From Cyclobacteriaceae bacterium (GTDB lineage Bacteria; Bacteroidota; Bacteroidia; Cytophagales; Cyclobacteriaceae): a stretch of 64,000 bases of DNA. Positions 4,949 to 24,241 of the stretch are shown here, in pieces; the stretch's first letter is position 1; each line of letters opens with the position of its first letter. The DNA lies in assembly GCA_044227305.1 (NCBI GenBank), contig JBGAFJ010000003.1, positions 89,667 through 153,666 of the forward strand. Direction: 5' to 3'. A model generated the notes under the pieces. The model made no database searches. It worked only from the letters and a program-made list of their open reading frames with translations, and was not told where the DNA came from. Made by a program: the position numbers and the translations under genes.

Positions 4949-5017
4949 GTTCGAGACAAGAGTTGCAAGTGTAAATTGCATAAAGTCCCAGGTATGTCCA
5001 ATTACTATCTTTAAGTA

Positions 5018-6409
5018 ATGAAAAAATACGCGGGCTCAATATTGATTGTGGACGACGATGAACACGTCTTGCTCACTTCGCGTCTGATCCTCAAAGAATA
5101 TTTTGAAAAAATCGAAACACTCAATTCTCCCAAGTCGCTGGAATCGAAACTTAAACAACAGGAGTTTGATGTTGTTCTGCTCGACATGAATTTCAAAGCG
5201 GGCATCACTTCGGGCAACGAAGGGATTTTTTGGATGAACCGCATTCGCCAAATCACACCGCTCGCGCAGGTGGTCTTGCAAACGGCTTATGGCGACATTG
5301 AGCTGGCTGTGAAGTCGATCAAAGAGGGGGCGGTGGACTTTCTGCCCAAACCTTGGGACAAGGAGAAGTTAGTTACCACGCTCATTAATGCCTACCAGCA
5401 ATCCCTGGCTCGAAAAGAGAACAGCGAACTGAAAACCAAGCAACAGGCCCTTCAACATCACTTTAATAACGATAGCCGTCCGTTCATTGCCGCCGCGCCG
5501 GCGATGGCGCCGATTTTGCGAATCATTGACCAGGTGGCGTCCACGGATGCTACCGTACTTATTCTCGGCGAAAACGGAACCGGCAAAGAATTAGTAGCTC
5601 GCGCCATTCATCAGCAATCGCGACGGGTGGAAGGTTCTTTTATCGGCGTTGACATGGGTGCCCTGGCTTCCACGCTGTTTGAATCGGAGATGTTTGGTCA
5701 TGAAAAAGGAGCGTTCACCGACGCGAAAGAAACACGGATTGGGAAATTTGAGCTGGCCAACCATGGCACCTTGTTTCTGGATGAAATGGGCAATCTCGCG
5801 GCGGAGCTGCAAGTGAAACTGCTTTCCGCATTGCAAACGAAGTCCATCTCCAAAGTTGGATCGAACAAAGTGATTCCCGTGGATGTTCGCGTGATCTGCG
5901 CAACCAATGCTCCGATCTATGACTTGGTAAAGATGGGATCGTTTCGGCAGGACTTATTCTATCGGATTAAGACCGTGGAAATTCATGTGCCACCGCTGCG
6001 CGACCGGAAAGAAGATATCCCCGCCCTTTTTGAATTTTATTTTGAGCAGTTCTGCCACCGATACCAAAAACAAATGAGTGTGAGTAAAACGGTATTGGAC
6101 GCACTCAGTCAATACCATTGGCCGGGCAATGTCCGCGAACTGCAACATGCTGTGGAGCGCGCCGTGATTTTGTGTCGCGAAGCGTCGCTTTCATTAACTG
6201 ATTTTCAATTGGTGCAAGAATATCGGGAGCCACACACATCTATCGATGACGCTACGCTTAATCTGGTAGATGTTGAGCGGGACGTCATCCGCCGGGCAAT
6301 TCACAAGCATCATAACAATCTAACCAGAGCCGCTGAAGAACTCGGTATCAGCCGCACCACCCTCTATCGGAAGTTGGAAGAATACGGTATCAGTTCTCTT
6401 GCGAAATAA
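5018..6409 (+). CDS. Sigma-54-dependent response regulator (NtrC family: REC, AAA+, Fis HTH)
   Basis: ILIVDDD and LLDMNF receiver motifs, GENGTGKE Walker A, GAFTDA loop, LFLDE, WPGNVREL and C-terminal AAEELGISRTTLYRKL. Confidence 0.95.
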   Translation: MKKYAGSILIVDDDEHVLLTSRLILKEYFEKIETLNSPKSLESKLKQQEFDVVLLDMNFKAGITSGNEGIFWMNRIRQITPLAQVVLQTAYGDIELAVKSIKEGAVDFLPKPWDKEKLVTTLINAYQQSLARKENSELKTKQQALQHHFNNDSRPFIAAAPAMAPILRIIDQVASTDATVLILGENGTGKELVARAIHQQSRRVEGSFIGVDMGALASTLFESEMFGHEKGAFTDAKETRIGKFELANHGTLFLDEMGNLAAELQVKLLSALQTKSISKVGSNKVIPVDVRVICATNAPIYDLVKMGSFRQDLFYRIKTVEIHVPPLRDRKEDIPALFEFYFEQFCHRYQKQMSVSKTVLDALSQYHWPGNVRELQHAVERAVILCREASLSLTDFQLVQEYREPHTSIDDATLNLVDVERDVIRRAIHKHHNNLTRAAEELGISRTTLYRKLEEYGISSLAK

Positions 6410-6415
6410 ATCAGC

Positions 6416-7795
6416 ATGCCAAGCGAGAACACGGTAAGTAAGAATTCAGAACGGCCAAAGCTATGGGGAAAAGTCGCCATCCGACTGCTCGCCACTTGTC
6501 TTTTTGGGTGTCTTACCGGTTTTCTCATTTTCAATTCACCCTATTGGATGAGCGGCATCTGGACGGGCGTGATCGCGGTGGGTTTGTTTATCCATACGAT
6601 GCAATTGGTTGACCGGTCAGAGCGCAAGCTTACGGCTTTTTTGCAGGCACTTCGGCAAAATGATTTTGCGATTACTTTTTCAGAAAACGGGAGAGCGGAT
6701 GATTATGATTTGCACCGGGCTTTCAATCAGCTGAATGAAGTGTTTAAAAATCTTCGCGCTGAACGCGAATCACAACATCAGTTGCTTCAGGTGGTGGTTG
6801 AACATGCCGGCGCTCCCATGATATGTTTCGACGAAGCAAACCACGAGGTCTATCTGATCAATGACTCGGCTAAGAACTTACTTCGGATTCCTTTTCTTCA
6901 AAAAGTCGGCGCGTTGGCTCGAATCGATCCGGAACTGCCAAATTTATTAAGCACAATTCAAGATGGAGAAAAAAGAACTTTTAAACTGACCCAGGACGGC
7001 AAGGTTGATTTTCTTTCCATCAATTCCCAGCATATCCGCTTTGAGGATAAGACCCTCAAGCTGGTAGCCTTATTTGATGTGACCAGCGAGTTGGCGGCAC
7101 GAGAGGCAGAGAGTTGGCACAAACTATTGCGCGTGTTAACTCATGAGATTTCCAATTCGGCCATTCCGTTGTCCACGTTGTCATCGTATATCTATCAAAA
7201 GTTAGTTTCTTCGCGGGAGCAGGCCCGCGAACTCACGGCAGAAGAGCGCGAAGATATTTTAGAAAGCCTCAAGACTATTGACCAGCGCAGCCGGTCACTC
7301 AAGGAATTTGTTCAGAATTTCAGGAGCGTCGGGCAAATTCCCGATCCTCACCTTACACAACTCTCTGTCGGGGAAGTTATTCATGATACCATTCAACTCT
7401 TCGCCAAGGACTTTGAAATGAAAAATATTCAGTTTACCCTTCGTTCTGGTGACTTTACCATTTATGCCGACAAGAATCTCACTCAACAGGTACTAATCAA
7501 TGTAATGAAGAATGCCATGGAAGCGATGAGCCACCTGAACGATGGCAAGAAAATTGAAATTGATGCCACCCCGATGGGTACACGTTTTGCGACGGTCACG
7601 ATTCGCGACACCGGAACTGGCATCGCTCCGGAGGATCTGGAACAAATCTTTATTCCTTTTTATTCCACAAAAAAAAATGGAAGTGGTATTGGCCTGAGCA
7701 TTTCACAACAAATTATGCAAAAGCAGAAAGGCGACATCACCGTACAATCCGAACCCGGCAAAGGAAGTGTATTTACGCTAAGGTTTATCTGCTAA
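6416..7795 (+). CDS. Sensor histidine kinase cognate to the upstream regulator
   Basis: Two N-terminal TM segments, LTHEISNS H-box, NVMKNA N-box, DTGTGI G1, FIPFYSTK F-box and GSGIGL G2. Starts 6 nt after the regulator. Confidence 0.93.
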   Translation: MPSENTVSKNSERPKLWGKVAIRLLATCLFGCLTGFLIFNSPYWMSGIWTGVIAVGLFIHTMQLVDRSERKLTAFLQALRQNDFAITFSENGRADDYDLHRAFNQLNEVFKNLRAERESQHQLLQVVVEHAGAPMICFDEANHEVYLINDSAKNLLRIPFLQKVGALARIDPELPNLLSTIQDGEKRTFKLTQDGKVDFLSINSQHIRFEDKTLKLVALFDVTSELAAREAESWHKLLRVLTHEISNSAIPLSTLSSYIYQKLVSSREQARELTAEEREDILESLKTIDQRSRSLKEFVQNFRSVGQIPDPHLTQLSVGEVIHDTIQLFAKDFEMKNIQFTLRSGDFTIYADKNLTQQVLINVMKNAMEAMSHLNDGKKIEIDATPMGTRFATVTIRDTGTGIAPEDLEQIFIPFYSTKKNGSGIGLSISQQIMQKQKGDITVQSEPGKGSVFTLRFIC

Positions 7796-9240: not shown

Positions 9241-9608
9241 GAAGTAGTAGATGAACCCGGCTTAATTTACGGTTTTCTGCGCTTATCGATACTGGTGAAA
9301 GTCAGCGGGAAATCTTCGAACACATCCACGAATTTTTTTCACGACAATCCTCGATCACTTTCACCCACGACATTCTTTTATTAAAGCAACGCTTACTTCT
9401 TTGTGCTGTTTGGTCGCATTGCCTGAATCCGGTAAATGTTTTATCTTAGATGTTATGAGTTTCCCTTATGGGTCACTCAATCCGAGGGCACGATACCGGA
9501 TGTCTTAAAGGTATCCCCCAATTTTCCAGAGTACTCCGAAGTTGTTGTCAGGCAGGGCTGTTGATCGTCCGGTTTTTTTGCAGTTAGAACTTAAATACAT
9601 CTGTCTAT

Positions 9609-11408
9609 ATGAAAATCAAATCTACCCTGGTGCTCCTGTCACTCGTATTGGCCCTGTTCATGCAGGGTTGCACCCCAAAACAAACTTTCTCCGGCATGGT
9701 CGTGGACATTCACAACCAACCCATCGACGGCGCTTTGGTTGAAATCGGTAAAAAAAGCAAACGGACTGAAAAAGGACGATTTACACTCGAAGTAGATTCC
9801 GCCGGGCGTTATGTTATGAATGTCACAAAACTGCACTTCGGATTTGTATCCAAGATTTTCAAGGCCGCGGATCGCAACATAGTGATAACGATGGACAGTG
9901 CTACAGTAGTGGTTATACCCAATGCTGAACCGGATGATGGCGGCACCACAGATACGGGTATCGATACCCAGGCGCCGGATGCAGTCACCATCACCGATTC
10001 ACCAACAACCACAGCACCGTTAAGTGCTTCCATTCCCGAAGCCACCAGTCCGTTGCGAAAAATCCCTTTCGTATATGACACCCATGGCAATCTGGTCGCG
10101 TTTGGAGATGCTTCTGTGGTGGCTGCTTACAAAGTGCTCGAGCAATTTCAGGCGCCCAACCAGGGTGCCACCGCTACAGTCGATCCGGATGATCTGGAGG
10201 AAACCGCTGAACCAGCGACAGCCGGATTCTTTCAAACCAAGGAAGGCGAAACAAACCGGTCGGGTATCCAGGGAAGCTTAAATACCATTGACACTTATTC
10301 CAGAGACGGAATGCCGGGTGACTTTACCATCGCAAAAGAAGACAATGGCGGAGGCTGGATGCAGACAAGGGGAGCTGTTGATCTCAGCTTTTTCAGGAAC
10401 GGTAAAGTCATGCAATTAAAAAAAGGAAAGCATGCACGCATCACCATTCCTGTGGATACAATAGCACAGCAGATTTTGGGCGAACGCCTGTCCAAAACCA
10501 TTCCTATCATGATCTATGATAAGAAGACTGGCTTCTGGAGACAGGATGTGGACAAGTGGACAGGGAAACCTTCCGTGGGCGTGCTCAATGAAAAACGTAC
10601 CGCCTATGTTGCCCTGGTAAGTCACTTCTCCGTATTCAATGCAGATGAAACTTTTACAAATGCAGCGTGCATCAGGCTTTGCAACAGCGCAACTGGCCCT
10701 TCGATGGTACCTGCCGATGCCCGTGTTGAAGTGCCGGGCACCTGGAATTGGTCGTACTCTTTTGGAACCGGTTGCAACAATCCGGCGAGTGGATGCGGCG
10801 CAGGGCAAAATGCGTTTGGAATAGCACGCCTCCTTCCCTCCAGTTCTGTGGGCATGCGTTTATTTGATAACACCGGTAAGATCAGATACACCTATGCGTT
10901 CGTCGGAGGTGCAGTAAGCCCGGACATTCACGATGATAATTGCTCAACCGTGAACAATCTTGCCACGTGCAACACGTCTACGGTTCTTGATTGGAGCGTC
11001 GCGGAGGCTGCCATTAATACCACACCCGGACAGGAAGGAACGATGAACAAACCCGTCGCAGCCGCAGACGTAGTCGGAGGCAAGTTGCGCATCAGTTGGG
11101 TGTACATACCTGACGTGACAGTGACCGGCACAACCTACGATTACACTACGCTCACACCACGCCATTACCAAATCGAGGTTGTTCCTGCATCAGGAACCAT
11201 CGCAGAGCGATTTATAGACATCCCTACACTGACCACTGCCCAAACCAACACGCTTGACGTAGATGTTACAACTATACCATACTCCAACACCAGTCAGGCT
11301 TATAAATTCAGAGTGATCGTCTTCGTCGGCATCACGAAAGTGCCTAGTGACTTGCTGCCATTCTGTTTCACTGCTGACACAGATACACAGCCCGTTTCTT
11401 GTCCATAA
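9609..11408 (+). CDS. Lipoprotein with N-terminal carboxypeptidase-regulatory-like domain and Cys-rich C-terminal region, function unknown
   Basis: Lipobox-like LFMQGC after a hydrophobic signal. GMVVDIHNQPIDGALVEI beta-sandwich start. Several paired Cys in the C-terminal half. Confidence 0.75.
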   Translation: MKIKSTLVLLSLVLALFMQGCTPKQTFSGMVVDIHNQPIDGALVEIGKKSKRTEKGRFTLEVDSAGRYVMNVTKLHFGFVSKIFKAADRNIVITMDSATVVVIPNAEPDDGGTTDTGIDTQAPDAVTITDSPTTTAPLSASIPEATSPLRKIPFVYDTHGNLVAFGDASVVAAYKVLEQFQAPNQGATATVDPDDLEETAEPATAGFFQTKEGETNRSGIQGSLNTIDTYSRDGMPGDFTIAKEDNGGGWMQTRGAVDLSFFRNGKVMQLKKGKHARITIPVDTIAQQILGERLSKTIPIMIYDKKTGFWRQDVDKWTGKPSVGVLNEKRTAYVALVSHFSVFNADETFTNAACIRLCNSATGPSMVPADARVEVPGTWNWSYSFGTGCNNPASGCGAGQNAFGIARLLPSSSVGMRLFDNTGKIRYTYAFVGGAVSPDIHDDNCSTVNNLATCNTSTVLDWSVAEAAINTTPGQEGTMNKPVAAADVVGGKLRISWVYIPDVTVTGTTYDYTTLTPRHYQIEVVPASGTIAERFIDIPTLTTAQTNTLDVDVTTIPYSNTSQAYKFRVIVFVGITKVPSDLLPFCFTADTDTQPVSCP

Positions 11409-11423
11409 CTTCTGACCCATCCC

Positions 11424-14400
11424 ATGACTTTTCGACACACTCTTCCGTGGCTGCTGATCACGGGCTTTCTGTTGACGCATCATTACGGCTCTCAACCAAC
11501 GAGCAGTCACGGAATCACAACAGGACCGAAAGATGGCAACCTGCTTTTTTATCTTCCAACATTCTCCGCATCATTCCAGGAGACATGTGTAGAGATCAAG
11601 GCGCTGGGGCACAATCAGGCATGGACCTGGTCGGCCAAATCAAAGAGCGTAAAACCTGTCTTCACCGATGGAAAAGTCATCTATGATCGGGGCCGGGTCG
11701 TCGAACAGTATATCCTGAAAGAAAAAACCATTGAACAACAATTCATCTTGATGCATCCGGCGGAAGTCTCCGCAGATGGTGATATTGTTATTTCAGGAGC
11801 CATCAGGTCGGACGGTTCATTGGTTAAAAAAACATCAGGCTGGTCGTGGCAAAATTCGACGGGAGAAATTACCCTGGGGGATGTTTATAGTTTTGACGCG
11901 GTCGGAAATCAAATTCCGTCGAGAATGGAAGTGACTGGTTCGGAGACCGTGATCACCATCCATGCTTCGGACCTCGAGAACGCAGTATATCCTGTCACTA
12001 TAGATCCCGAAATCGGGGCAAATGATTTTCGCATCAGCTTCGCAGGGGGAGTTGGAAATGACGGTGATGCGTTGAACTACAGCGCAGTTTCTCCGGCTGT
12101 CGCCTACAATGCTACGACAAATACACAGCTCGTGGTTTGGGTTGAGTCGCAAACCGGCGAAGATGAAATTTATGGTCAACTCATTAACGGAACGACCGGA
12201 GTACCGCTAAGCACCAATGATTTCCGGATCAGCACGATGGGCCCCGGCGGCTCTGGTTCAACCTACGCAGCGACAGCGCCCGACGTGATTGCCATTGGCT
12301 CTTCTTTTTTTGTTGTATGGAGTGGTGACGACAACAGGGACTACGGGGCAGGAGCGCTCGCCAATGACGAATTTGAAATCTATGGCCAGTTCGTCAATGG
12401 GACCACTGGCGCGCTCAGTGGCAGTATGATACGAATCAGCACCACGGGAACGGATGGAAACGCTGCATTTGACGCCAACACGCCTGCGGTCACTTACAAT
12501 CAAACTGCCAACCGACTGATGGTAGTGTGGTATTCCGATCAGGTCTCGGACAACCAGTTCGAAATCTACAGCCAGGGACTCGAGTCCGATGGAACCCTTA
12601 TTGGTGGAAACGTACGCGTCTCCACCATGGGACCCGATCCCAATTCCCTGTATGACGCGTTTCGCCCGGATGTTGCCTGGAATAGCACCAGCAACCAGTA
12701 TCTGGTGGTATGGCATGGCGACATTAATCTTATCGGCGATAATGAAAATGAAATTTTTGCGCGAAGACTGGATGGTATCAATGCCAACCATGGCAACCCA
12801 ATCGGAAGCACCATACAAGTGAGTGATATGGGCACAACCGGGAATACCAGCCTTGCGGCATCCGATGCTTCCGTATCCTACAATTCAACGAACTCCAACT
12901 ACCTCGTGGTCTGGTTCGGCGATGACGATACAGCGCCATTAGTTGATAATGAGAATGAGATTTTCGGTCAATTTGTGACTGGGTCGGGTACGGTCGCAAA
13001 CCCGAACAGTTTTTTCAGGATTAGCGACATGGGAACCGATGGCTCCACCAGCTTTGCCGCACTCAACCCCGACGTGAGTTATGATCCCAACCTCGGACAG
13101 TTCCTCGTGGTTTGGCATGGTGACGATAACACGGGCGGACTAATCGACAATGAGTTTGAAATATACGGGCAGTTGCTGCGTGGCTCTGATGGTCTCGCGC
13201 AGGGCACCAACGACTTCAGACTCAGCGACGCGGGCGGCACGGGCAATACTACGTACAATGCCACGTTTCCGGTTATCGCTTACAATAGCGGGAACCGTGA
13301 TTACCTGATCGCCTGGCAAGGCGACGATAATTCGACCACAACAGCAGACAATGAAAATGAAATCTGGGGACAACGCTATGCTGATCCCAAATCCGAACCC
13401 ACAGCACAACCCACGTTCTCCAGTTACTCAACACCAACCACTTCATCCTACACAGTGAATTACAATGCACCGGTCAGCGTTCCGGATGGATACATCGCAT
13501 TGCGCAAAGCCGGGTCAGCGCCAGCGGTCGCAGATTATCCGGTAGATCAAACTCCCTATACCGCCGGAACGGTTATCAATGCATCAAGCACTGTGGCCTT
13601 TTCGGGCAACGCACTAACATTCAATGAATCCGGACTATTACCAGGTACAACATATTTTTATTCGATCTTTTCTTACAATGGCGTCAATGCCTCCATCAAT
13701 TATTATACAACTTCGCCGCTCACGCCAGCAAGTGTAACAACGCTCTCCCTTGAACCTCTGACGCACGCCGCGACCTTTACCGCAACTCAAAGCGGAACGA
13801 ATCAGATCAACCTCACATTCTCAGCGGCATCGACCATCACCAATGCAGCGGGCTATATCATTCTACGCCGACAAGATGGAACCAATCCAACGGGTACCGG
13901 TATAAGTGATGCAGCCGTTGCCCCAGCAACACCGGCAACCGGAACAACTCTGATTACTACCATCACTAACACGGCAACCACCAGTTTCAATGATGTGAGT
14001 GTAACACCTGGCGTACAATACAACTACGCCATCATACCCTATGGATACAACGGATCAAACGCTGCGACATACAATTTCCTCACCGCGGCTACGATTCCCA
14101 CGGCAAATGCCTCCACGCTGAGTCTCGAGCCTGCTGCGCATGCAGCCACTTTTACCGCCACTCAGTCCGGAACCAATCAGATCAACCTTGCTTTCTCCGC
14201 AGCAAGTACCATTACCAATGCGGCTGGCTATATTATTCTGAGAAGACAGGATGGCACTAATCCCGCAGCAACGGGCATCAACGACGGAGCAGCGGCGCCT
14301 TCAACACCTGCGACCGGAACGACTCTGCTCACAACCATCACCAACACCGCTACCACTTCTTTCAACGATGCCACTGCATCTCCCGGTGTGCAATACAACT

Positions 14401-17400
14401 ATGCGCTGATCCCCTACGGCTATAATGGCACCAACGCCGCCACTTATAATTTCCGGACGGCAGCAACCATACCTGTCGCCAACGCTACTACACTCAGTCT
14501 TGAACCATTGGCACATCCGGCAACCTTCTCTGCAACACAGGCGGGTGCAACTCAAATCAATCTCGCTTTCGCTGCCGCAAGTACAATCACCAATGCGTCG
14601 GGTTATATTATTCTTAGAAGAGCTGATGCCACCAATCCAACATCTGCCGGCATTGCTGACGCCGCGGCAACACCAGCAACACCAACAACCGGTACCACAC
14701 TCGTTACTACAATCACAAACACCGCCACCACTTCGTTCAATGACACCGGCGTTTCCCCAGGGATTCAATACAACTATGCAATTTTTCCCTTCGGATATAA
14801 TGGATCAAACGCCCTCACTTACAATTACCTCCTGACCGCCGGTCTGACTGCCAATGCCTTTACACTCAGTGCGGAACCTGTCGCCCATGCCGCCACTTTT
14901 ACCGCCACTCAGTCAGGAACCAATCAAATCAACCTCGCTTTCTCAGCAGCAAGTACAATTACCAATGCAGCCGGCTACATTATTCTGAGAAGACAAGATG
15001 GTTCCAATCCAGCTGCAACAGGCATCAATGACGGAGCGGCGGCGCCTTCCACACCTGCGACCGGAACAACTTTGCTCACAACCATCACCAACACTGCTGC
15101 TACCTCCTTCAATGATGCCACTGCATCTCCCGGTGTGCAGTACAACTATGCGCTGATCCCCTACGGCTACAATGGCACCAACGCCGCCACTTATAACTTC
15201 CGGACTGCTGCAACCATCCCTGTCGCCAACGCAACTACGCTCAGCCTTGAACCATTGGCACACCCTGCAACCTTCTCTGCAACACAGGCGGGAGCAACGC
15301 AAATCAATCTGGCCTTCGCCGCCGCAAGCACAATCACCAATGCGTCGGGTTATATTATTCTCAGACGTCAGGATGGCGCCAATCCAACATCTGCCGGTAT
15401 TGCTGACGCTGCAACAGCACCAGCGACACCAACAACCGGTACCACACTCGTTACTACAGTTACAAACACCGCCACCACTTCGTTCAATGACACCGGCGTT
15501 TCCCCAGGGATTCAATACAACTATGCAATTTTTTCCTTCGGATATAATGGATCAAACGCCCTCACTTACAATTACCTCCTGACCGCCGGTCTGACTGCCA
15601 ATGCCTTTACACTCAGTGCGGAACCCATCGCGCATGCTGCTACTTTTACCGCCAGTCAGTCGGGAACCAATCAGATCAACCTTGCTTTCTCCGCAGCAAG
15701 TACAATTACCAATGCGGCTGGCTATGTCATTCTGAGAAGACAGGATGGCTCTAATCCCGCAGCAACGGGCATCAACGACGGAGCGGCGGCGCCTTCCACA
15801 CCTACGACCGGAACAACTTTGCTCACAACCATCACCAACACCGCTACCACTTCTTTCAACGATGCCACTGCATCTCCCGGCGTGCAGTACAACTACGCGC
15901 TGATCCCCTACGGATACAATGGCACCAACGCCGCCACTTACAATTTCCGGACGGCAGCAACCATACCTGTGGCCAACGCTACTACACTCAGTCTTGAACC
16001 ATTGGCACACCCTGCAACCTTCTCAGCAACACAGGCGGGAGCAACGCAAATCAATCTGGCCTTCGCTGCCGCAAGCACAATCACCAATGCGTCGGGTTAT
16101 ATTATTCTCAGGCGTCAGGATGGCGCCAATCCAACATCTGCGGGAGTAACCGATGGCGGTGCTGTATCTGCGACACCGGTCACGGGAACCACACTTGTCA
16201 CCACAATAACCAGTGCAGGCACGACCTCCTACAATGACACGGGCTTGTCTTCAGGGGTTGCCTATAATTATGCAATCATTCCGTATGGATACAACGGAAC
16301 GAATGCATTGTCATATAACTACAGAACTGCTGCCACCATTCTTACCGCAAGTGCAACGACTGTTGTGGTTGAGCCGACGAATCCTCCAACCGCACTAAAT
16401 TTCTCTGCGTTAACCAGTAGCTCGTACACACTCAGTTTTACGTCATCTGTTGGTGGTGCGGCCGGGTATCTCGCCATTCGTAAGACGGCATCATCACCGA
16501 CCGGCACACCAGTCGATGGCACCACGTATACAATAGGCACGCCCCTTGGCGATGGCGTGGTCGCCTATGTGGGGAGCGCTACGACCTTTGCTGAAGTCGG
16601 GCTTGCCAGCAATACCGTTTATTCGTACGACATTTTTGCTTTTAATGGTTCAGGTGTTTCTATCAACTACCTGGCTTCTACTCCTTTGGAGGGAAGCCGC
16701 ACAACCCTAGAAGTTAAGCCTGCCAATCAGCCTACAGCACTTGTATTTTCTAACATAGCTTCTTACAGCTTCACACTTTCATTTAGTGCACCAGCGGGAG
16801 GATCAACGGGCGTCATTGTATTGCGCACTGCGGGAGCTTATCCCACGGGGGTACCAACGGATGGGACAACCTATACTGCCGGAAGTTCGATTGGGGATGG
16901 TCTTATCGTTTCGAATGGATCAACGGTGTCGATAAACGAGACGTCGCTCAATTCCAACACCGAGTATTTCTATCGCGCCTTCTCCTTTAACGGATCCGGA
17001 CCGGCAAGAAACTACCTTTCGGCGAGCCCACTACAGGGCAGTCAGTTGACTCCCCCTGACGCGCCCGTGGCCAAAGATCCCGTACCTACTGCGACTTCAT
17101 TCAAAGCCAAGTGGGATCCGGTCACAGGCGCAACGTCTTATCAAGTGGACGTGTCCACCGACAACTTTGCAACATTTTTCACAGGATATAACAGCAAGGT
17201 TGTGGCTGCTTCTTCCGTACCGGAAGAACTTGTGCAAGGATTAACTCCGCTGACGAGTTACAAGTACCGTGTGCGGTCGGTGAATGCCGGCGGTGTGTCA
17301 GCCAATTCAAATGAGGTATCTGTATTAACCGCGAGTCAGGGCGGAGGGAACAAGCCTCTTGACATTCCTCTTACCAACAATCCCACGTTCACAAAAAACT

Positions 17401-18950
17401 TCAGCGGCAATTCCACTGTTGCCACGGTCATAGTCAATGACGGCACGGCTCCAATCAGTGTAGTTTTAAAATACCGCACAATTACAACGACGTCTCCCTT
17501 CCTCACCAAGCAAGCCACATTAAGGTCAGGGTCGGCCACTACCTACGAAGTGACTATCACGAAGGACATGCTTGACGAGCTTGGGATAGAATTCTACTTT
17601 GAAGCATCGGATGCATCGGGCGGATCTGCCAAGACCACCGATCCCCATTCTTACATGTATTATGCGGTCGACGATGCCACAGGGTCGATCCCTTTCACAT
17701 CGGCTTTTGGAGGATCGTCGGGTAGTTATGAAATGTTTTCCATTCCCTACTCGCTCACCTCGAACCAGGTGTCGAACGTTTTTGTGAAGCTGGGTAAGTA
17801 TGATAAATCACAGTGGAGACTATTTCACTACCAGGGAGGCAAGTACGATGAAAATGAAAAAGGAATTAATACCATCGAATCTGGCAAGGGATATTGGTTC
17901 AATGCAGCAAATAAAGTAGATATCAATCCAGGACCGGGCAATGTATCCGAAAGCAACCAATCCAAAGGCTTCTCCATAACACTCGAGAAAGGATGGAATC
18001 AGATCGGCAACCCCTATCCATTCAACGTGGATTGGGCTACGGTTCAATCCGCCAATTCTTCTGCGGTCCTGGGATCGCTGTGGTCCTTTGAATCCGGCCA
18101 ATATGTGAAGAAGGGTACGCTCGTTGTCTGGAGGGGTGCTTTTGTTTTCAGTGACAACGGAGGAGTCGTGACTTTCCCGGTGTTGAGTAAAACGCTCAAC
18201 AGCGGACGCATGGCACAAACTGAATTCAGCATCACTCCGGATGAAACCAAGTGGCAACTGCCGCTTACCCTGACCCTGAATGGCCTTACAAATATCAGTT
18301 CCATCGGTATGCACCCGGACGCAAGCGACACAAAGGACCGGTTCGATGAAATTACGGTTCCCCGTTTTCTGGGCTATCTGGAGATGAGTACTCATCACAA
18401 AGAGTACTTCGCGCCGAACTTCACAACAGACGTGGTGCGTACATCAAACGCCCATACCTGGGAATTTACTATCGAAAGTAGTGAACAGGGTACCGCATCA
18501 CTGGCCTGGGATCGCTCAGCCCTCGAGGCGAGTCATTCAACGTTCATGTTGATTGATTTGACAACCTCATCATGGTTGGATATGACCACGGCAGATCAGT
18601 ACGTCTTCAGCGCTGAAGCTACGCACCGCATCAAGATTGTTTACAGTCACGATACGTCGTTTGACCCGGGGGTTACGCTCATTGGCAATGCTTATCCCAA
18701 TCCATTCAATCGCGACCTTTCGATTCCTGTATTGGTCGGAGGAGAAAGCAAGGAAGTACACGTGCAGGTCTTTGACGCCATGGGCAGAATGGTTCGCTCT
18801 ATGCAAGCCAGTTTTGCCGAGAGTGGAACTCACACTTTGCATTGGGATGGAAAAGATGATCAAGGCAATGAAGTCAGCAGTGGTCTGATATTTTACCGGT
18901 TCAGAAATGATCCGGCGCAAGCGGCCCGACGGCTAATTAAGATCCGATAG
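11424..18950 (+). CDS. Giant (2508 aa) T9SS type A-sorted repeat protein: 7 propeller-like repeats, about 10 FN3-like repeats, FN3 and FlgD-Ig-like CTD; probable adhesin
   Basis: YPVTIDP N-domain, seven NDFRIS...VVW.GD...ENEI.GQ repeats, Thr/Ala-rich ~125-aa repeats, GWNQIGNPY motif, and CTD NAYPNPF...VFDAMGRMVR...HWDGKDDQGNEVSSGLIFYR. Adhesin function is inferred. Confidence 0.85.
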   Translation: MTFRHTLPWLLITGFLLTHHYGSQPTSSHGITTGPKDGNLLFYLPTFSASFQETCVEIKALGHNQAWTWSAKSKSVKPVFTDGKVIYDRGRVVEQYILKEKTIEQQFILMHPAEVSADGDIVISGAIRSDGSLVKKTSGWSWQNSTGEITLGDVYSFDAVGNQIPSRMEVTGSETVITIHASDLENAVYPVTIDPEIGANDFRISFAGGVGNDGDALNYSAVSPAVAYNATTNTQLVVWVESQTGEDEIYGQLINGTTGVPLSTNDFRISTMGPGGSGSTYAATAPDVIAIGSSFFVVWSGDDNRDYGAGALANDEFEIYGQFVNGTTGALSGSMIRISTTGTDGNAAFDANTPAVTYNQTANRLMVVWYSDQVSDNQFEIYSQGLESDGTLIGGNVRVSTMGPDPNSLYDAFRPDVAWNSTSNQYLVVWHGDINLIGDNENEIFARRLDGINANHGNPIGSTIQVSDMGTTGNTSLAASDASVSYNSTNSNYLVVWFGDDDTAPLVDNENEIFGQFVTGSGTVANPNSFFRISDMGTDGSTSFAALNPDVSYDPNLGQFLVVWHGDDNTGGLIDNEFEIYGQLLRGSDGLAQGTNDFRLSDAGGTGNTTYNATFPVIAYNSGNRDYLIAWQGDDNSTTTADNENEIWGQRYADPKSEPTAQPTFSSYSTPTTSSYTVNYNAPVSVPDGYIALRKAGSAPAVADYPVDQTPYTAGTVINASSTVAFSGNALTFNESGLLPGTTYFYSIFSYNGVNASINYYTTSPLTPASVTTLSLEPLTHAATFTATQSGTNQINLTFSAASTITNAAGYIILRRQDGTNPTGTGISDAAVAPATPATGTTLITTITNTATTSFNDVSVTPGVQYNYAIIPYGYNGSNAATYNFLTAATIPTANASTLSLEPAAHAATFTATQSGTNQINLAFSAASTITNAAGYIILRRQDGTNPAATGINDGAAAPSTPATGTTLLTTITNTATTSFNDATASPGVQYNYALIPYGYNGTNAATYNFRTAATIPVANATTLSLEPLAHPATFSATQAGATQINLAFAAASTITNASGYIILRRADATNPTSAGIADAAATPATPTTGTTLVTTITNTATTSFNDTGVSPGIQYNYAIFPFGYNGSNALTYNYLLTAGLTANAFTLSAEPVAHAATFTATQSGTNQINLAFSAASTITNAAGYIILRRQDGSNPAATGINDGAAAPSTPATGTTLLTTITNTAATSFNDATASPGVQYNYALIPYGYNGTNAATYNFRTAATIPVANATTLSLEPLAHPATFSATQAGATQINLAFAAASTITNASGYIILRRQDGANPTSAGIADAATAPATPTTGTTLVTTVTNTATTSFNDTGVSPGIQYNYAIFSFGYNGSNALTYNYLLTAGLTANAFTLSAEPIAHAATFTASQSGTNQINLAFSAASTITNAAGYVILRRQDGSNPAATGINDGAAAPSTPTTGTTLLTTITNTATTSFNDATASPGVQYNYALIPYGYNGTNAATYNFRTAATIPVANATTLSLEPLAHPATFSATQAGATQINLAFAAASTITNASGYIILRRQDGANPTSAGVTDGGAVSATPVTGTTLVTTITSAGTTSYNDTGLSSGVAYNYAIIPYGYNGTNALSYNYRTAATILTASATTVVVEPTNPPTALNFSALTSSSYTLSFTSSVGGAAGYLAIRKTASSPTGTPVDGTTYTIGTPLGDGVVAYVGSATTFAEVGLASNTVYSYDIFAFNGSGVSINYLASTPLEGSRTTLEVKPANQPTALVFSNIASYSFTLSFSAPAGGSTGVIVLRTAGAYPTGVPTDGTTYTAGSSIGDGLIVSNGSTVSINETSLNSNTEYFYRAFSFNGSGPARNYLSASPLQGSQLTPPDAPVAKDPVPTATSFKAKWDPVTGATSYQVDVSTDNFATFFTGYNSKVVAASSVPEELVQGLTPLTSYKYRVRSVNAGGVSANSNEVSVLTASQGGGNKPLDIPLTNNPTFTKNFSGNSTVATVIVNDGTAPISVVLKYRTITTTSPFLTKQATLRSGSATTYEVTITKDMLDELGIEFYFEASDASGGSAKTTDPHSYMYYAVDDATGSIPFTSAFGGSSGSYEMFSIPYSLTSNQVSNVFVKLGKYDKSQWRLFHYQGGKYDENEKGINTIESGKGYWFNAANKVDINPGPGNVSESNQSKGFSITLEKGWNQIGNPYPFNVDWATVQSANSSAVLGSLWSFESGQYVKKGTLVVWRGAFVFSDNGGVVTFPVLSKTLNSGRMAQTEFSITPDETKWQLPLTLTLNGLTNISSIGMHPDASDTKDRFDEITVPRFLGYLEMSTHHKEYFAPNFTTDVVRTSNAHTWEFTIESSEQGTASLAWDRSALEASHSTFMLIDLTTSSWLDMTTADQYVFSAEATHRIKIVYSHDTSFDPGVTLIGNAYPNPFNRDLSIPVLVGGESKEVHVQVFDAMGRMVRSMQASFAESGTHTLHWDGKDDQGNEVSSGLIFYRFRNDPAQAARRLIKIR
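13746..16364 (+). repeat. Seven intragenic tandem repeats of 372-375 nt with a 747-nt higher-order period
   Basis: Units start at 13746, 14121, 14496, 14868, 15243, 15615 and 15990. Units 2/4/6 and 3/5/(7) are near-identical to each other. Confidence 0.95.
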
Positions 18951-18953
18951 ACT

Positions 18954-19682
18954 ATGAGAAAGATTCTATTTTTATACCTTCTCCAGCTGGCCTCGTCTTC
19001 TGTATGGGCGCAGGAATTCGCTATCAAAACCGTAGAACTTACCGCGGATCAAGTGGTCCTGCACTACGATTTAATCGATACCACTAAGAATCGCACGTAC
19101 ACGATTTTTGTTTACACTTCCCGCGATAATTTCCTCGCACCACTGAATCAATTGACCGGAGACGCCGGACTTGAGGTAAGGCCAGGATTAAACCGGAAGA
19201 TTACCTGGAATGCAAAAGCTGAACTTGGAGCCACATTCGAAGGAGACGTTGAAGTCGAGATTCGCGGGCGGGTCTACGTGCCGTTCATCAGGTTTCAGGG
19301 TTTCGAAGATGTGCAGATAAGAAAAAGGAATGTTCCCTTCATTGTGAAGTGGAGCGGAGGAACTCGTCAGAACATATTGAATTTCCAGTTGTACCAGGGT
19401 GAAAAACTGGTATATACTTTTCCCAACGTGGCGAATGTAAACGAATACAAAGTCATCTTACCAAATGCTGTCAGGCCTGGCAAAGACTATTATTTCCGGA
19501 TCGCCGATTCGAAGAACAGGGATCAGGTAGTGGTCACTTCAAAGTTTGACGTAAAAAGGAAAATTCCGTTGATCGTCAAGACGATTCCTATCATAGGTGT
19601 GGGTGCACTAGTCTATGCGCTTACTTCCTCGAAGTCGGCGTCTGAACTTGATGTGCCACCCGATCCCCCAACTCAAAAATAA
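18954..19682 (+). CDS. Exported hypothetical protein with C-terminal hydrophobic anchor and Pro-rich tail
   Basis: Signal peptide ending VWAQ. C-terminus KTIPIIGVGALVYALT...LDVPPDPPTQK. Starts 3 nt after the giant gene. Confidence 0.8.
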   Translation: MRKILFLYLLQLASSSVWAQEFAIKTVELTADQVVLHYDLIDTTKNRTYTIFVYTSRDNFLAPLNQLTGDAGLEVRPGLNRKITWNAKAELGATFEGDVEVEIRGRVYVPFIRFQGFEDVQIRKRNVPFIVKWSGGTRQNILNFQLYQGEKLVYTFPNVANVNEYKVILPNAVRPGKDYYFRIADSKNRDQVVVTSKFDVKRKIPLIVKTIPIIGVGALVYALTSSKSASELDVPPDPPTQK

Positions 19683-19688
19683 ATTGAA

Positions 19689-20858
19689 ATGAAAACCATT
19701 GCCTTCACGATACTCATGATGCAAAGCCTGCTGGTTTATGGTCAGGGCTTTGCAGACAAAACCAACGCAATCAAACTGAACTACAATCAGACGTTAACCC
19801 CAACAACGCTTCCTGTGATCACCTGGACTATGCCACGATCTGAGCGATCCAACAGCATTGAAGAATCAGTCACCTTCGAAGCGGAGATTAAATCCGATGT
19901 GATTCTGAAGCAAATTCGTCTGGAGTTAACCAGTGGTGGACAGACGCGGACCAGGATCATTCCTATTGGTGAAAATGATTTGAGTAAGACACTTCGCCAG
20001 CCCGTTAAACTGCTGGATGGCGAAAACATAATACGCATCGTCGCAGAGAACATAAAAGGCGGAGCAGTGAGCAGCACGCGCTCCATCCTCATGGGTCGGG
20101 ATGCCATTGCAGATGCCGTCGATATCAATCGCAGAGACTACGCGCTGATCTTCGCAACAGATAACTACGAAAACTGGTCCGATCTGGTCAACCCAATCAA
20201 TGACGCACGCACGATTGAAAAAATACTGACGGAGAAATATGGATTTCAGACAGAGATCGTGGAAAATGCAACCAACGACGAAGTGTGGGCCAAGATCACC
20301 GACTACAATACCAAAAAGTTCAATCCGCAGGATCAGCTGTTCGTATTTTTCGCTGGCCATGGCTCGTTTGATCAGACGCTCGGCGAAGGCTATGTTGTGG
20401 CAAGCAATTCGCTGATGAATGACAAAGGCCGCTCTTCTTACATCTCACATATTCTCCTGCGTGAACGTCTGAACAATATCCGGTGTGAACATATATTCTT
20501 AATGATGGATGTGTGTTTTGGCGGAACCATCGATCCCCTGTTAGCCAAAGCGCGCGCCGGAGAAGACATGGATGAAGCAGCAGACAAACAATATCTGGTG
20601 AAGAAGCTCACCCGCCGGACACGGAAGTTCCTCACCAGCGGAAGCAAGGAATACGTTTCAGATGGAATCGCAGGAAAGCATTCTCCTTTTGCTGAGAAAT
20701 TTATCCTTGCCCTCAAAGAAATAGGCGGGGGTACCGGACGCATTCTCTCTTTGCTCGAACTGCAAACCTATTTTCTGAAGTTGCCCACCGAGCCGCGGTT
20801 TGGGAGTTTTGGCTCCGACGATCCCGCCAGCGATTTTGTGTTCGTCGCCAAACAATAA
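19689..20858 (+). CDS. Caspase-family (peptidase C14) protein with signal peptide and N-terminal Ig-like domain
   Basis: DYALIFATDNY, LVNPINDA, FFAGHG (catalytic His), MMDVCFGG (catalytic Cys) and HSPFA motifs. Confidence 0.9.
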   Translation: MKTIAFTILMMQSLLVYGQGFADKTNAIKLNYNQTLTPTTLPVITWTMPRSERSNSIEESVTFEAEIKSDVILKQIRLELTSGGQTRTRIIPIGENDLSKTLRQPVKLLDGENIIRIVAENIKGGAVSSTRSILMGRDAIADAVDINRRDYALIFATDNYENWSDLVNPINDARTIEKILTEKYGFQTEIVENATNDEVWAKITDYNTKKFNPQDQLFVFFAGHGSFDQTLGEGYVVASNSLMNDKGRSSYISHILLRERLNNIRCEHIFLMMDVCFGGTIDPLLAKARAGEDMDEAADKQYLVKKLTRRTRKFLTSGSKEYVSDGIAGKHSPFAEKFILALKEIGGGTGRILSLLELQTYFLKLPTEPRFGSFGSDDPASDFVFVAKQ

Positions 20859-20900: not shown

Positions 20901-20940
20901 AAATAAAACGCCTCAGGAATCCTGAGGCGTCTTTATTATT
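20901..20940. terminator. Bidirectional intrinsic terminator
   Basis: Stem ACGCCTCAGG-aat-CCTGAGGCGT (20908-20930), flanked by A-rich and T-rich tracts, between convergent genes. Confidence 0.85.
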
Positions 20941-20959: not shown

Positions 20960-23900
20960 CTACCTCTTCAACGGCTCATAACTCTTAAACGGATTGATGC
21001 TCACCTTCTCCATCGCCGCACGATACTCCGGCCACTGCTTCTCGTAAAATTTGTTCACGCGATCCAGGATGCGGTCGATCTGATCGGAAGCCTGCTTCAT
21101 CACGCGCTCGTCGGTGGCGTTCACGGGATCTTTCGAAGAAGCAATGTAGTTCTGCGCTGTAAAGATGTAAGACACCGGCGTGGGTATCGGCGACGCAGCA
21201 AGCCCCTGGCGCTTGTCTTCCTTGCCGATCATAAAGTCGATTACGGCGTTGATCGAATCTTTGATGACCTTCGTTTTATCAGTCGCATCTTTCAGATCTG
21301 TACGCTTCGACTCCTTGATGCGCTTCTCGTAGTCGTCGGCAATCTCCAGCGACTCTTTTAATCTTTCACTCGCCTGTGACGCAAGGCCTGTCATCTTCTG
21401 AAGGTCTTTCAAAAGGGTATACCGCGCCTGCAGGACGTTATCAATATTGGGATAGCGTGGATCTGATTTCACTACAACCATCGTCGAATCTTTCTTGCCG
21501 TCGTACGTGATGCGCACTTTGTACGTGCCGGGCAACACCTGGGGACCAGCAGGTTCGTCGCCACCACGACGACGGACGCCACGTGATGGACTGCGCTCTC
21601 CTTTTTCATTCATCGCCCAATAAATGCGATTGAATCCGTTGTCGTCGGATACTTTTTGCTTGACCGTGCGGATCTTCTCGTTCTTTGCGTTGAACACTTC
21701 CATCGTAAGCGAATCCGCCTTCTGCGCCTTCTCATCCTTTTTATCATCTTTGCTTTCCTCCGCTTTCGGCGACGGCGTTATTTTGTTTTTATCGACCGTA
21801 GCCTTCTTCGACTTATCATCTGCTTTGTTCTCCTCTTTCTTCGGCTCCTCCTTCTTTTCAGGTTTGTTGATCACATAGGAGATCATCGCACCGGAAGGCC
21901 TGTTCTCTCCTTCGAACATCGAATTGCCGGGGAATAAAATGCCGGTTGGATCCTGAAAGGTCACTTGATACGCATTGGGCGCATCGAATACATAGAGACC
22001 GTTGTTCAACACCGTAGGTCCGGTTTTCACCATCTCACGTAATGGTCGGATGTCGTCCAACACAAAAAGCGCGCGACCAAACGTGCAGATCACCAGATCA
22101 TGTTCGCGGGGATGAATGACGAGATCCATCACCGGCACACCGGCAGGAAGGCCTGAAGTCCAGCGTGTGTAAGTCTTTCCTTCATCAAGACTTACAAACA
22201 ATCCGTTTTCAGCACCGACAAAAATCAATTTAGGTTCTACCGGATCTTGTTGAACAGCAAGGATGTAGTTGTTGTCGCCGAACTCAGCGGCGGTTGCAAT
22301 GCTCTCCCAGGTCTGACCAAAGTCACGGGAACGGAACAGGTAAGGCTTGTAATCGAATAACCGGTAGTTGTTCACCACCACAAACACTTCACCTGCCTTG
22401 TATTCCGATGCCCTGATCTGCGGAATCCACGCGCCTTTCGGCATGCCGGAGATTTTTGATGTGACATTGGTCCAGTTCTTTCCGCCGTCGCGGGTAAGTT
22501 GTACCTGGCCGTCGTCGGTTCCAACCCAGATGACACCTTTGTCAACAGCACTCGGCGCGACTGCCAGGATGGTACAGTGATTTTCAGCACCCGTAGCATC
22601 GATCGTCAGACCACCGCTCTCATGCGCTTTCTGTTTTTCAGGATCGTTGGTGGTCAGATCTGGTGAAATGACTTCCCAGGTTGATCCTTTGTCGGTGCTC
22701 TTGTGTAAAAACTGGCTGCCATAGTAGATCGTACCGTTCTCTTTCGGATCCTGCGCAAAGCCCGCATTCCAGTTGAAGCGGAGCCTTACTTTGGTATCAG
22801 GGTGCGTGGGACGAATACTTTTCGTGTGACCTGTCTTTCGATCGAAGCGACCGAGGGCACCGCCCTGCGACATCGCGTAGCCGAAACGATTGTCATCCAT
22901 GTCAGGTGCTGTATCGAATCCGTCACCGAACATCACGGTCTGCCAATACATGTTTCTGATGCCGCCATCTTTCCATGTATAAGCCGGCCCTACCCAAGAG
23001 CCATTGTCTTGCAAGCCGCCATACACATTATAAGGTTGATCCATGTCAACGTTGACGTGGTAGAACTGACCCACGGGAATGTTGTCGATAAACGTCCAGT
23101 TCTTTCCGTAATCGTAGGTGATGTTCAGACCACCGTCGTTACCATCGATCATGTGTGCCGGATTGTTGGGATCGATCCACCAAGCGTGATGATCGGGGTG
23201 AACACCGGAATAAGGAAGCAACTTTTGAAATGACTTACCGGCATCGATACTGACATTCACTTCTGAATACACCGTGTACAAACGATTTTCATTTTGCGGA
23301 TCGACGTGCAATTCTGAATAATAAAAAGGACGGTCTCCGATTTCATCCATGTTGCCGTTGATCATCTCCCACTTAAAACCCCCATCATTGGAGCGATAGA
23401 GTCCATTCTTCTTGCTCTCGACCAAGGCATAAACAACATCCGGTTTGCTTGCCGCGATGTCGAGGCCGATGCGTCCAAGATCACCTTCAGGAAGACCGTC
23501 TTTGCTGGTGCGCCTCGCCCAGGTCTTGCCGCCATCGAACGTGATGTACAAGCCCGATCCGGGGCCACCTGATTTGAAACTCCACGGCCAGCGGCGGTGC
23601 TGCCACATCGACGCGATCAGTTTATTCGGATTGCGTGGATCCATGACGAGGTCAGCGCAACCGGTCTTCTCATCGACGAACAATACGCGCGTCCACGTGG
23701 CGCCGCCGTCGGTTGTTTTATAAACACCCCGTTCAGGATGTTCACCCCAGGGTGATCCGATGGATGCCACATACACGACATCAGCATTGTTGGGATCAAT
23801 AATGACTTTATAAATATTGCGGGTCTTCTCAAGGCCCATCAACTTCCAGTTCTTTCCGCCATCGAGACTTTTATAAATACCGTAACCACTGTTGAGACTG

Positions 23901-24241
23901 TTGCGCGGGTTGCCTTCGCCGGTTCCTACCCACACCACGGATGGGTTGTCTTGCTGGACTGCGATCGCACCTATAGAGAGAACCGCTTCTTTATCAAAAA
24001 TCGGTTCCCAGTTAACACCGCCGCTGGTGCTTTTCCACACACCGCCGGATGCGGCGCCCGCATATATAATGTTCGGGCTGCTGTTTACAGATGCAATGGA
24101 TGTGATACGGCCGCTCATGCCAGCGGGCCCAATGCTGCGGGGTTTATAGCCTTTCAATTTTTCCATGTCAAGTTTCTGAGCAACGAGACATGCCTGGCTG
24201 GCAAGGATTACAGCCAGGGTAACGAAAACGATTTTCTTCAT
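20960..24241 (-). CDS. VPS10/sortilin-like BNR (Asp-box) repeat protein, often annotated glycosyl hydrolase
   Basis: Signal peptide, PRSIGPAGMSGRI start and many SxDGGxTW Asp-boxes (KSTSGGVNW, KSLDGGKNW, KTTDGGATW, TRDGGKNW). Confidence 0.88.
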   Translation of the reverse strand: MKKIVFVTLAVILASQACLVAQKLDMEKLKGYKPRSIGPAGMSGRITSIASVNSSPNIIYAGAASGGVWKSTSGGVNWEPIFDKEAVLSIGAIAVQQDNPSVVWVGTGEGNPRNSLNSGYGIYKSLDGGKNWKLMGLEKTRNIYKVIIDPNNADVVYVASIGSPWGEHPERGVYKTTDGGATWTRVLFVDEKTGCADLVMDPRNPNKLIASMWQHRRWPWSFKSGGPGSGLYITFDGGKTWARRTSKDGLPEGDLGRIGLDIAASKPDVVYALVESKKNGLYRSNDGGFKWEMINGNMDEIGDRPFYYSELHVDPQNENRLYTVYSEVNVSIDAGKSFQKLLPYSGVHPDHHAWWIDPNNPAHMIDGNDGGLNITYDYGKNWTFIDNIPVGQFYHVNVDMDQPYNVYGGLQDNGSWVGPAYTWKDGGIRNMYWQTVMFGDGFDTAPDMDDNRFGYAMSQGGALGRFDRKTGHTKSIRPTHPDTKVRLRFNWNAGFAQDPKENGTIYYGSQFLHKSTDKGSTWEVISPDLTTNDPEKQKAHESGGLTIDATGAENHCTILAVAPSAVDKGVIWVGTDDGQVQLTRDGGKNWTNVTSKISGMPKGAWIPQIRASEYKAGEVFVVVNNYRLFDYKPYLFRSRDFGQTWESIATAAEFGDNNYILAVQQDPVEPKLIFVGAENGLFVSLDEGKTYTRWTSGLPAGVPVMDLVIHPREHDLVICTFGRALFVLDDIRPLREMVKTGPTVLNNGLYVFDAPNAYQVTFQDPTGILFPGNSMFEGENRPSGAMISYVINKPEKKEEPKKEENKADDKSKKATVDKNKITPSPKAEESKDDKKDEKAQKADSLTMEVFNAKNEKIRTVKQKVSDDNGFNRIYWAMNEKGERSPSRGVRRRGGDEPAGPQVLPGTYKVRITYDGKKDSTMVVVKSDPRYPNIDNVLQARYTLLKDLQKMTGLASQASERLKESLEIADDYEKRIKESKRTDLKDATDKTKVIKDSINAVIDFMIGKEDKRQGLAASPIPTPVSYIFTAQNYIASSKDPVNATDERVMKQASDQIDRILDRVNKFYEKQWPEYRAAMEKVSINPFKSYEPLKR

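Follow-up and report, generated by a model that had tools for sequence, protein, structure and literature searches.

An exported caspase homologue, a giant type IX secretion protein and a small membrane protein form a conserved gene trio in Cytophagales, with a candidate cleavage site

Introduction

Why would a bacterium export a caspase-like protease, and why would it encode this protease in one putative operon with a giant secreted protein? This question is raised by four genes (window 9609-20858) in a Cyclobacteriaceae bacterium, a soil-type member of the Cytophagales, on a 64,000-nucleotide stretch of contig JBGAFJ010000003.1 (positions 89,667 to 153,666) that was analysed as a whole and is called the window here. 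The genes, P0001 to P0004, encode a predicted lipoprotein, a giant type IX secretion system (T9SS) protein, a small exported membrane protein and an exported peptidase of family C14. Bacterial caspase homologues are numerous, almost none of them has a known substrate, and those few on which work exists are cytoplasmic enzymes, considered mainly with regard to cell death or defence. For P0004, the gene neighbourhood suggests candidates for a substrate (P0002), for the site of cutting (Arg2262) and for a partner in the membrane (P0003).

We found that P0002, P0003 and P0004 represent a real, conserved and previously undescribed protease-adhesin-tether module that comes with a concrete cleavage hypothesis; no published description of the trio was found in the literature searched. 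The reading we favour, although we give it somewhat less than an even chance, is that the trio is a dedicated protease-tether-substrate set in which P0004 would nick or release the putative adhesin P0002.

Conservation and co-inheritance of the trio

The four genes are all read from the + strand, only 15, 3 and 6 nt separate one from the next, and a terminator-like hairpin closes the set (Table 1). Their coordinates, translations and profile matches confirmed the layout proposed in an earlier note on this DNA, i.e., a lipoprotein, a giant with a T9SS C-terminal domain (CTD), an exported protein with a C-terminal anchor, and a C14 peptidase with a signal peptide and an intact catalytic dyad. 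P0002, P0003 and P0004 are each present in a single copy in the source genome.

A one-genome-per-species scan for P0004 gave 501 matches, and the best 80 loci were examined together with their 10-kb flanks. All of them were of the Cytophagales type (Ohtaekwangia, Cyclobacteriaceae, Imperialibacter, Marivirga, Ekhidna, Roseivirgaceae), and neighbours were counted by tblastn and all-against-all clustering of the open reading frames (ORFs) in these loci. A T9SS giant homologous to the last 500-1000 residues of P0002 was found beside the caspase gene in 77 of the 80 loci and a P0003-like protein in 62. Among the three loci without a giant, one contig ends just upstream of the caspase gene (L015) and another contains only a partial caspase (L039); many of the loci without a P0003-like protein are short contigs. 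A P0001-like gene, directly upstream of the giant gene, was present in only 12 of the 80 loci. The linkage of this C14 peptidase to a T9SS protein is thus strongly conserved in Cytophagales, and what these loci keep together is a trio (the giant, the small membrane protein and the caspase) and not the four-gene operon of the earlier note. P0001 appears to be an optional, lineage-specific accessory.

The 59 complete trios occur in the orders giant-small-caspase (34), small-giant-caspase (14) and giant-caspase-small (10), with one further arrangement, and the nearest caspase neighbour has the same gene order in 51 of them. Several genomes carry two or three trios. In these cases the paralogues within a genome are more distant from each other, for all three genes, than from trios of the same order elsewhere (cross-genome pairings L038-L054, L048-L046 and L028-L008, each for all three genes), indicating that the paralogous trios diverged as units. 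Divergent representatives include a small-giant-caspase trio in the same genus (G379), with 27-30% identity to the window proteins, and a caspase-like gene in the same family (G199) that directly adjoins the gene for a 3170-aa protein carrying the conserved C-terminal module of P0002 (see below).

Surface-protein genes cluster in Bacteroidota genomes, and the C-terminal module has a much wider distribution than the P0004 family: of 401 genomes sampled across the phylum, 80 have the module, most of them from other classes, with several copies and without a P0004-type caspase, and 10 have a member of the P0004 family. Both facts speak for the view that the genes are neighbours by chance and have no specific functional relation. 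Such chance synteny is nevertheless already very unlikely, since the adjacency spans three gene orders, extends down to 27% caspase identity, and is preserved when the trios duplicate as units.

P0004 is a predicted periplasmic protease of the metacaspase type

P0004 consists of a signal peptide, an Ig-like domain (residues ~40-135) and a caspase/metacaspase domain (150-389), of which residues 150-356 match Peptidase_C14 (PF00656; E 7.7e-16, 58.9 bits against a cut-off of 21.4). About 2500 relatives are present in the protein collection, and the best 120 are all ~389 aa long and 61-76% identical. The dyad of His224 (AGHG) and Cys276 (DVC) is invariant in 80/80 homologues. So is Gln19, which follows the signal peptide (LLVYG/QGF). 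A Gln at the mature N-terminus corresponds to the 'Q-rule' for signal peptidase I substrates of Bacteroidetes (PMC5837995), and the predicted mature forms of both P0003 and P0004 fit this rule. P0004 has no match to the T9SS CTD models and no lipobox, and the caspase domain reaches its last residues; on these grounds it is predicted to be soluble and periplasmic, and not surface-located. The earlier note had described an exported enzyme in a surface operon; the export is borne out by the Sec signal peptide, and the enzyme would meet the cargo only during periplasmic transit. Exported prokaryotic metacaspases as such have been noted in silico and are not rare there (PMC3501461).

In a single-sequence search of the PDB only the yeast metacaspase Yca1 (4f6o) was found, with a marginal E value of 0.13, and the caspase profile gave nothing at E<=0.01 against PDB sequences. 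In the Yca1 alignment, 'LVNPIND172A' is paired with 'LRGCINDA' and 'FFAGH224G' with 'HYSGHG', so that D172 falls on the C-I-N-D motif. The acidic residues of the presumed pocket are conserved in 80/80 (D274) and 79/80 (D172) homologues. We take D274 (Cys-2) and D172 (C-x-x-D) to be the S1 residues of metacaspases, as in TbMC2 (Cys92, Asp95, Ser156, Asp211). All characterised C14 enzymes other than caspases cut after Arg or Lys owing to their acidic pocket (PMC5756287), and from the metacaspase-type pocket of P0004 we predict the same specificity.

Many bacterial caspase-like proteases belong to defence systems, and P0004 gave a generic match to the 'caspase' model of PADLOC (E 4.8e-9) and one to the EACC1-type caspase model, with 50.8 bits against a cut-off of 140. 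If the linkage were unrelated to envelope proteolysis, the locus might for example be a conflict or defence module, with P0004 as an exported toxin or cell-death effector and the giant as its receptor or decoy. We assign little probability to this idea. The gene set matched no defined anti-phage defence system in PADLOC, P0001-P0003 had no PADLOC match at all, and the conserved set includes no NTPase, sensor or other defence component; moreover, all three conserved proteins are extracytoplasmic, and genomes maintain multiple stable paralogous trios.

Other caspase-like proteins were met in the course of the analysis. The source genome has two further Peptidase_C14 ORFs of different architecture that are unlinked to the operon, encoding 1154 aa (L001, G000:C7:598820-602563) and 1088 aa (L002, G000:C7:73237-76896). 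In the same genus, a protein with a caspase domain 46% identical to that of P0004 and with N-terminal WD40-like repeats is encoded without a trio (L110; G171:C84:7827-9473, minus strand), on a contig that ends inside this gene. In other classes, different caspase cassettes stand beside T9SS cargo with the same C-terminal module (L107 G128:C1:3609000-3627000; L112 G281:C34:14000-32000); one such cassette has three tandem caspase proteins of 685-754 aa, and in another a pair of caspases (744 and 812 aa) is accompanied by small partner proteins. The association of caspases with T9SS cargo is therefore broader than the P0004 subfamily.

An invariant arginine in the conserved end of P0002

P0002 begins with a signal peptide and ~9 NDFRIS-type repeats (residues ~200-650), which are followed by an FN3-like stalk (~657-1975; Pfam fn3 match at 1889-1966), a conserved C-terminal module and the CTD. 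The Por_Secre_tail match (PF18962, residues 2424-2463) is just over its cut-off (28.9 bits, cut-off 27) and the TIGR04183 score under it (18.4, cut-off 23), but the CTD region also matched FlgD_ig (E 1.6e-8), and a CTD-like C-terminal end was present in 66/66 P0002 homologues examined. By this C-terminal sorting domain P0002 is a predicted T9SS type A cargo. The N-terminal repeats (window 12000-13400) are units of ~55-65 residues with the motif 'NDFRIS...G...P.VAYN...LVVW.GDD...NE.EI.GQ'; they resemble propeller blades and match no Pfam family.

The giant homologues differ widely in length (698-3240 aa), and what they have in common is limited to the last ~720 residues. AlphaFold2 (AF2) modelled this segment of P0002 with a mean predicted local distance difference test (pLDDT) of 89.4 and a predicted template modelling score (pTM) of 0.72 from a 55-sequence alignment, and the 439-residue module with a pLDDT of 93.9 and a pTM of 0.89 from a 54-sequence alignment (A3). 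The segment contains two FN3 domains, three beta-sandwich domains (A, B and C) and the CTD, with a loop of ~20 residues between B and C. Foldseek searches of the PDB with both models returned generic FN3/Ig/macroglobulin-type beta-sandwich matches at template modelling scores (TM) <0.2 and no specific solved relative; the idea that the module is an alpha-2-macroglobulin-like 'bait' was dropped on this result.

The B-C linker is predicted to be an exposed, flexible loop, and almost every position in it is variable. The exception is R2262 (NSGR/MAQ), which is invariant in 55/55 aligned caspase-linked giants and is usually preceded by Gly. The linker Arg is also found in the divergent trios G379 and G199 ('IQGR', 'QGAR'). 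For comparison, we used 18 full-length module homologues from other classes that are not linked to a caspase: for 17 of them, a genome search with PF00656 showed no Peptidase_C14 gene nearby, and for the 18th (L092, G040), which was searched for the P0004 family only, the single match was on another contig. These 18 homologues do not conserve the residue, with an Arg at the column in 3 cases and a gap in 6, but they keep the structural invariants of the module (P125, G171, A317, D322, D325, P330, D353, W363 and D395 in A3 numbering). The linker Arg thus tracks the P0004-type caspase, which is how a dedicated cleavage site would look.

The position of this residue could also suit a different chemistry. 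Sortase-like transpeptidases occur in clan CD, the clan of family C14, and PorU has a sortase-like mechanism (PMC4560394); P0004 has a weak Peptidase_C25 match in Pfam (E 0.014), and the invariant Arg stands just ahead of the last domain and the CTD. P0004 might therefore act like PorU, the legumain-type ligases or GPI (glycosylphosphatidylinositol) transamidase, cutting after the linker Arg and joining the new C-terminus to an envelope acceptor, so that P0002 would be anchored by a route other than CTD and PorU. We consider this improbable: no acceptor is known, a reaction in the periplasm would strip the CTD before export, and we know of no C14 enzyme that is a ligase.

P0003 and its C-terminal tail

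P0003 starts with a signal peptide (SSSVWA/QEF), and towards its C-terminus a hydrophobic stretch (residues 204-224) is followed by only ~18 residues. Proteins of this family share two Ig-like domains, the motif 'VKRKxPLxxK', a hydrophobic segment of ~17 residues, a variable spacer of 10-15 residues and 'PPxPP' at the very end; the charges flanking the helix run opposite to the positive-inside rule. A 152-aa one-domain mini-P0003 with the same tail occurs in another class (G013 C5), where it directly precedes a P0004-like caspase (38% identity to P0004 over residues 42-388), and no module-bearing cargo is present in this neighbourhood. That these two form a single fusion protein was ruled out, as they are in different frames and hence are two genes. 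Larger caspase proteins of other classes, encoded beside module-bearing T9SS cargo, themselves end in a 'basic-helix-PPxPP' tail. When profiles of P0003 and of the C-terminal ends of these fused caspase proteins were compared, the similarity was no more than weak (E 0.002 with a probability of 13%, and E 0.089), and the fusion (Rosetta-stone) argument therefore rests on the shared tail pattern and not on significant homology. We read P0003 as a putative membrane tether or regulator of the caspase.

The tail signature itself (a KRK basic cluster, ~17 hydrophobic residues, a short spacer and a terminal PPxPP) occurs in small Ig-domain proteins and caspase-domain proteins of several Bacteroidota classes, for example in P0003 residues 200-242, L106:8942-11710, L107:8611-10665 and L108:7510-7968. 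Its charge pattern is the reverse of that of PEP-CTERM/LPXTG-type signals, and it may be an undescribed anchor or sorting tail.

The partnership of small protein and caspase can also be read without the giant as substrate. The trio would still be functional, but the caspase and P0003 would form a periplasmic device for regulated proteolysis or signalling that cuts, for example, P0003 or another envelope protein, and the module of the giant would be a ligand, sensor or docking partner. Since the pair occurs in G013 C5 without module cargo, we judge it to predate the trio and to be the more mobile of the two; elsewhere, caspase proteins are fused to the same membrane tail. In addition, a histidine kinase, a sigma-54 regulator and a MacB-type ABC (ATP-binding cassette) protein are encoded near the trio in 10 of the 80 loci, including the window, in differing gene orders. 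However, this explanation does not account for the invariant linker Arg that is limited to caspase-linked giants, and the ~18 residues of P0003 past the helix are too short for a known signalling domain. We regard it as unlikely, though worth keeping in view.

A proposed processing pathway for P0002

In the favoured protease-tether-substrate reading, P0002, P0003 and P0004 would cross the inner membrane via Sec, and P0003 would hold or regulate the caspase at the membrane. P0004 would then cleave P0002 behind Arg2262 during the stay of the folded cargo in the periplasm; we place the cut there because it is the only compartment that the two proteins are predicted to share. The compact A-B-C unit would stay together, and the nicked P0002 would be exported by the T9SS. 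As a result, only non-covalent contacts would keep the passenger (stalk, A and B) on domain C, the cell-proximal one, giving a two-chain adhesin that could later be matured or shed. Surface proteins that are nicked and yet remain associated are known from mucin SEA domains, the GAIN domain of adhesion GPCRs (G protein-coupled receptors) and the furin S1 cut of Notch. In these, too, an interdomain cut is made during secretion and the fragments are held non-covalently and can be separated later, but the proteins are eukaryotic, have an unrelated fold and are mostly autocatalytic, so that they serve as analogies only.

The maturation or shedding module suggested in the earlier note is thus partly supported, as far as the coupling of protease and giant is concerned, by the conserved linkage, the inheritance as a unit, the Arg/Lys-type pocket and the restriction of the linker Arg to caspase-linked homologues; the cleavage itself we infer.

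Several points weigh against this pathway. Lacking a CTD and a lipobox, P0004 is expected to remain periplasmic, whereas the adhesin would act at the surface, and a cut before export parts the passenger from the CTD, so that the added assumption is needed that the domains stay associated. Loss of the metacaspase pocket Cys (TbMC2 Cys92, AtMC9 Cys29) lowers the activity of characterised enzymes (PMC5756287), and the corresponding position is Pro169 in 80/80 P0004 homologues. As to the linker, its alignments are ambiguous, some unlinked homologues have an Arg or Lys somewhere in it, and the Arg is absent from module cargo encoded next to caspases of other types (G013 C45, G281 C34); the invariant residue could be a structural or recognition residue specific to the subfamily. 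Finally, the distance matrices of the proteins correlate (r 0.51-0.70, Mantel p 0.001), but this correlation is confounded by shared phylogeny.

More tentatively, we think it possible that the trio represents a dedicated envelope proteolysis system of Cytophagales, found in other forms in other Bacteroidota, in which a membrane-tethered periplasmic metacaspase nicks giant T9SS adhesins at one conserved Arg in the course of secretion. If so, the two-chain adhesin would have a built-in breaking point controlling attachment and release, and giant adhesins of Bacteroidota that are abundant in soil and water would undergo a regulated processing step on their way through type IX secretion. This would also be the first defined physiological substrate and job of an exported bacterial caspase homologue, and the system would be the T9SS counterpart of Lap.

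Comparison with known systems

The LapG/LapD/LapA system of Pseudomonas fluorescens (PMC3032545, PMC3032553) likewise has linked genes for a cysteine protease of the periplasm, for a partner that sits in the inner membrane and has a periplasmic domain, and for a giant adhesin built of repeats, and the conserved cleavage site of LapA adjoins its membrane-proximal end, as does the candidate site of P0002. The parts differ, however. LapG, a calcium-dependent protease of the transglutaminase-like family C93, cleaves behind Ala-Ala in the N-terminal retention module of the adhesin, in contrast to a C14 protease and a candidate site at an Arg near the C-terminus in the trio; LapA is secreted by type I secretion and not by the T9SS; and LapD is a receptor of cyclic di-GMP with large cytoplasmic domains, unlike P0003 with its short end past the helix. 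Pfam and NCBIfam searches of the four proteins revealed no C93/DUF920, GGDEF-EAL or type I secretion retention-module domains. The resemblance to Lap is one of logic only, with no homologous part.

With metacaspases and orthocaspases (MEROPS C14B; Yca1 4f6o, TbMC2, Microcystis MaOC1; PMC5756287), P0004 shares the C14 fold, the His-Cys dyad, the Asp at Cys-2, the Asp of x-I-N-D, and p20 and p10-like regions in one chain. The characterised enzymes are cytoplasmic and linked to stress or cell death, whereas P0004 is predicted to be exported by Sec, has an N-terminal Ig-like domain and a Pro in place of the pocket Cys, and is partnered by its genes with a T9SS cargo and a membrane protein. The metacaspase island of Psychroflexus (PMC3914696) was considered as the same system and rejected, being a different cluster.

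The gingipains RgpA and Kgp (family C25) of Porphyromonas gingivalis and PorU are also clan CD cysteine proteases tied to T9SS cargo (PMC4560394). Gingipains process large adhesin polyproteins with Arg or Lys specificity, and the fragments remain associated at the cell surface. Their catalytic and adhesin domains, however, are parts of one polypeptide with its own CTD, and they act at the surface, whereas P0004 is a separate C14 protein without a CTD. Here, too, the likeness lies in the logic, and no part of the trio is homologous.

Locus features, P0001 and neighbouring genes

Table 1 Features of the P0001-P0004 locus (window coordinates)
Feature	Position	Strand	Basis
P0001, predicted lipoprotein, 599 aa, weak N-terminal CarboxypepD_reg-like domain	9609..11408	+	ORF, translation, Pfam
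P0002, predicted giant T9SS cargo, 2508 aa	11424..18950	+	ORF, Pfam, NCBIfam
Three-domain beta-sandwich module (A-B-linker-C) ahead of the CTD in P0002	17373..18689	+	54-sequence alignment A3, AF2
Arg2262 codon (NSGR/MAQ), candidate cleavage site in P0002	18207..18209	+	alignment; codon checked
T9SS type A C-terminal sorting domain of P0002	18693..18947	+	PF18962, FlgD_ig
P0003, signal peptide, two Ig-like domains and hydrophobic helix, 242 aa	18954..19682	+	ORF, Pfam
P0003 hydrophobic helix, KRK before and PPDPP tail after	19563-19625	+	translation
P0004, predicted exported Peptidase_C14, 389 aa	19689..20858	+	ORF, Pfam
P0004 codons of Asp172, His224, Asp274 and Cys276	20202 (Asp172), 20358 (His224), 20508 (Asp274), 20514 (Cys276)	+	codon check
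Bidirectional intrinsic-terminator-like hairpin at operon end	20905..20933	both	sequence

The hairpin is GC-rich, has a stem of 10-13 bp with T-runs on both strands, and separates the operon from a convergent Sortilin/BNR gene (20960-24241), whose adjacency to the trio is not conserved in the 80 loci. On the other side, within a few kb of the trio, window 2450-7795 encodes a permease of the MacB/FtsX type together with a sigma-54-dependent response regulator and its neighbour, a histidine kinase. No sigma-54 promoter was found upstream of 9609 in the gap 9241-9608, and TGG-N9-TGC matches occur in the window at chance level. Besides the window, the loci with kinase, sigma-54 regulator and MacB-type genes are L033, L035-L037, L040, L048, L053, L076 and L079; other loci also carry an ABC ATPase with a partner of ~415 aa. 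Further variable neighbours of the trio are tail-fibre-like proteins, VWA proteins and PAS-LuxR regulators.

The N-terminus of P0001, MKIKSTLVLLSLVLALFMQGC, is a signal peptide ending in Cys, and the hydrophobic region of its homologues ends in Cys as well; the match to PF13620 (E 2e-4) is under the Pfam cut-off. Often just upstream of the lipoprotein or giant gene there is a member of a family with the N-terminal motif 'VPGTLSYQGIL' (cluster c4; loci L003, L007, L011, L021, L022, L027, L030, L031, L040 and L079), one of which carries a Peptidase_S74 intramolecular chaperone domain, comparable to phage tail-fibre-like proteins.

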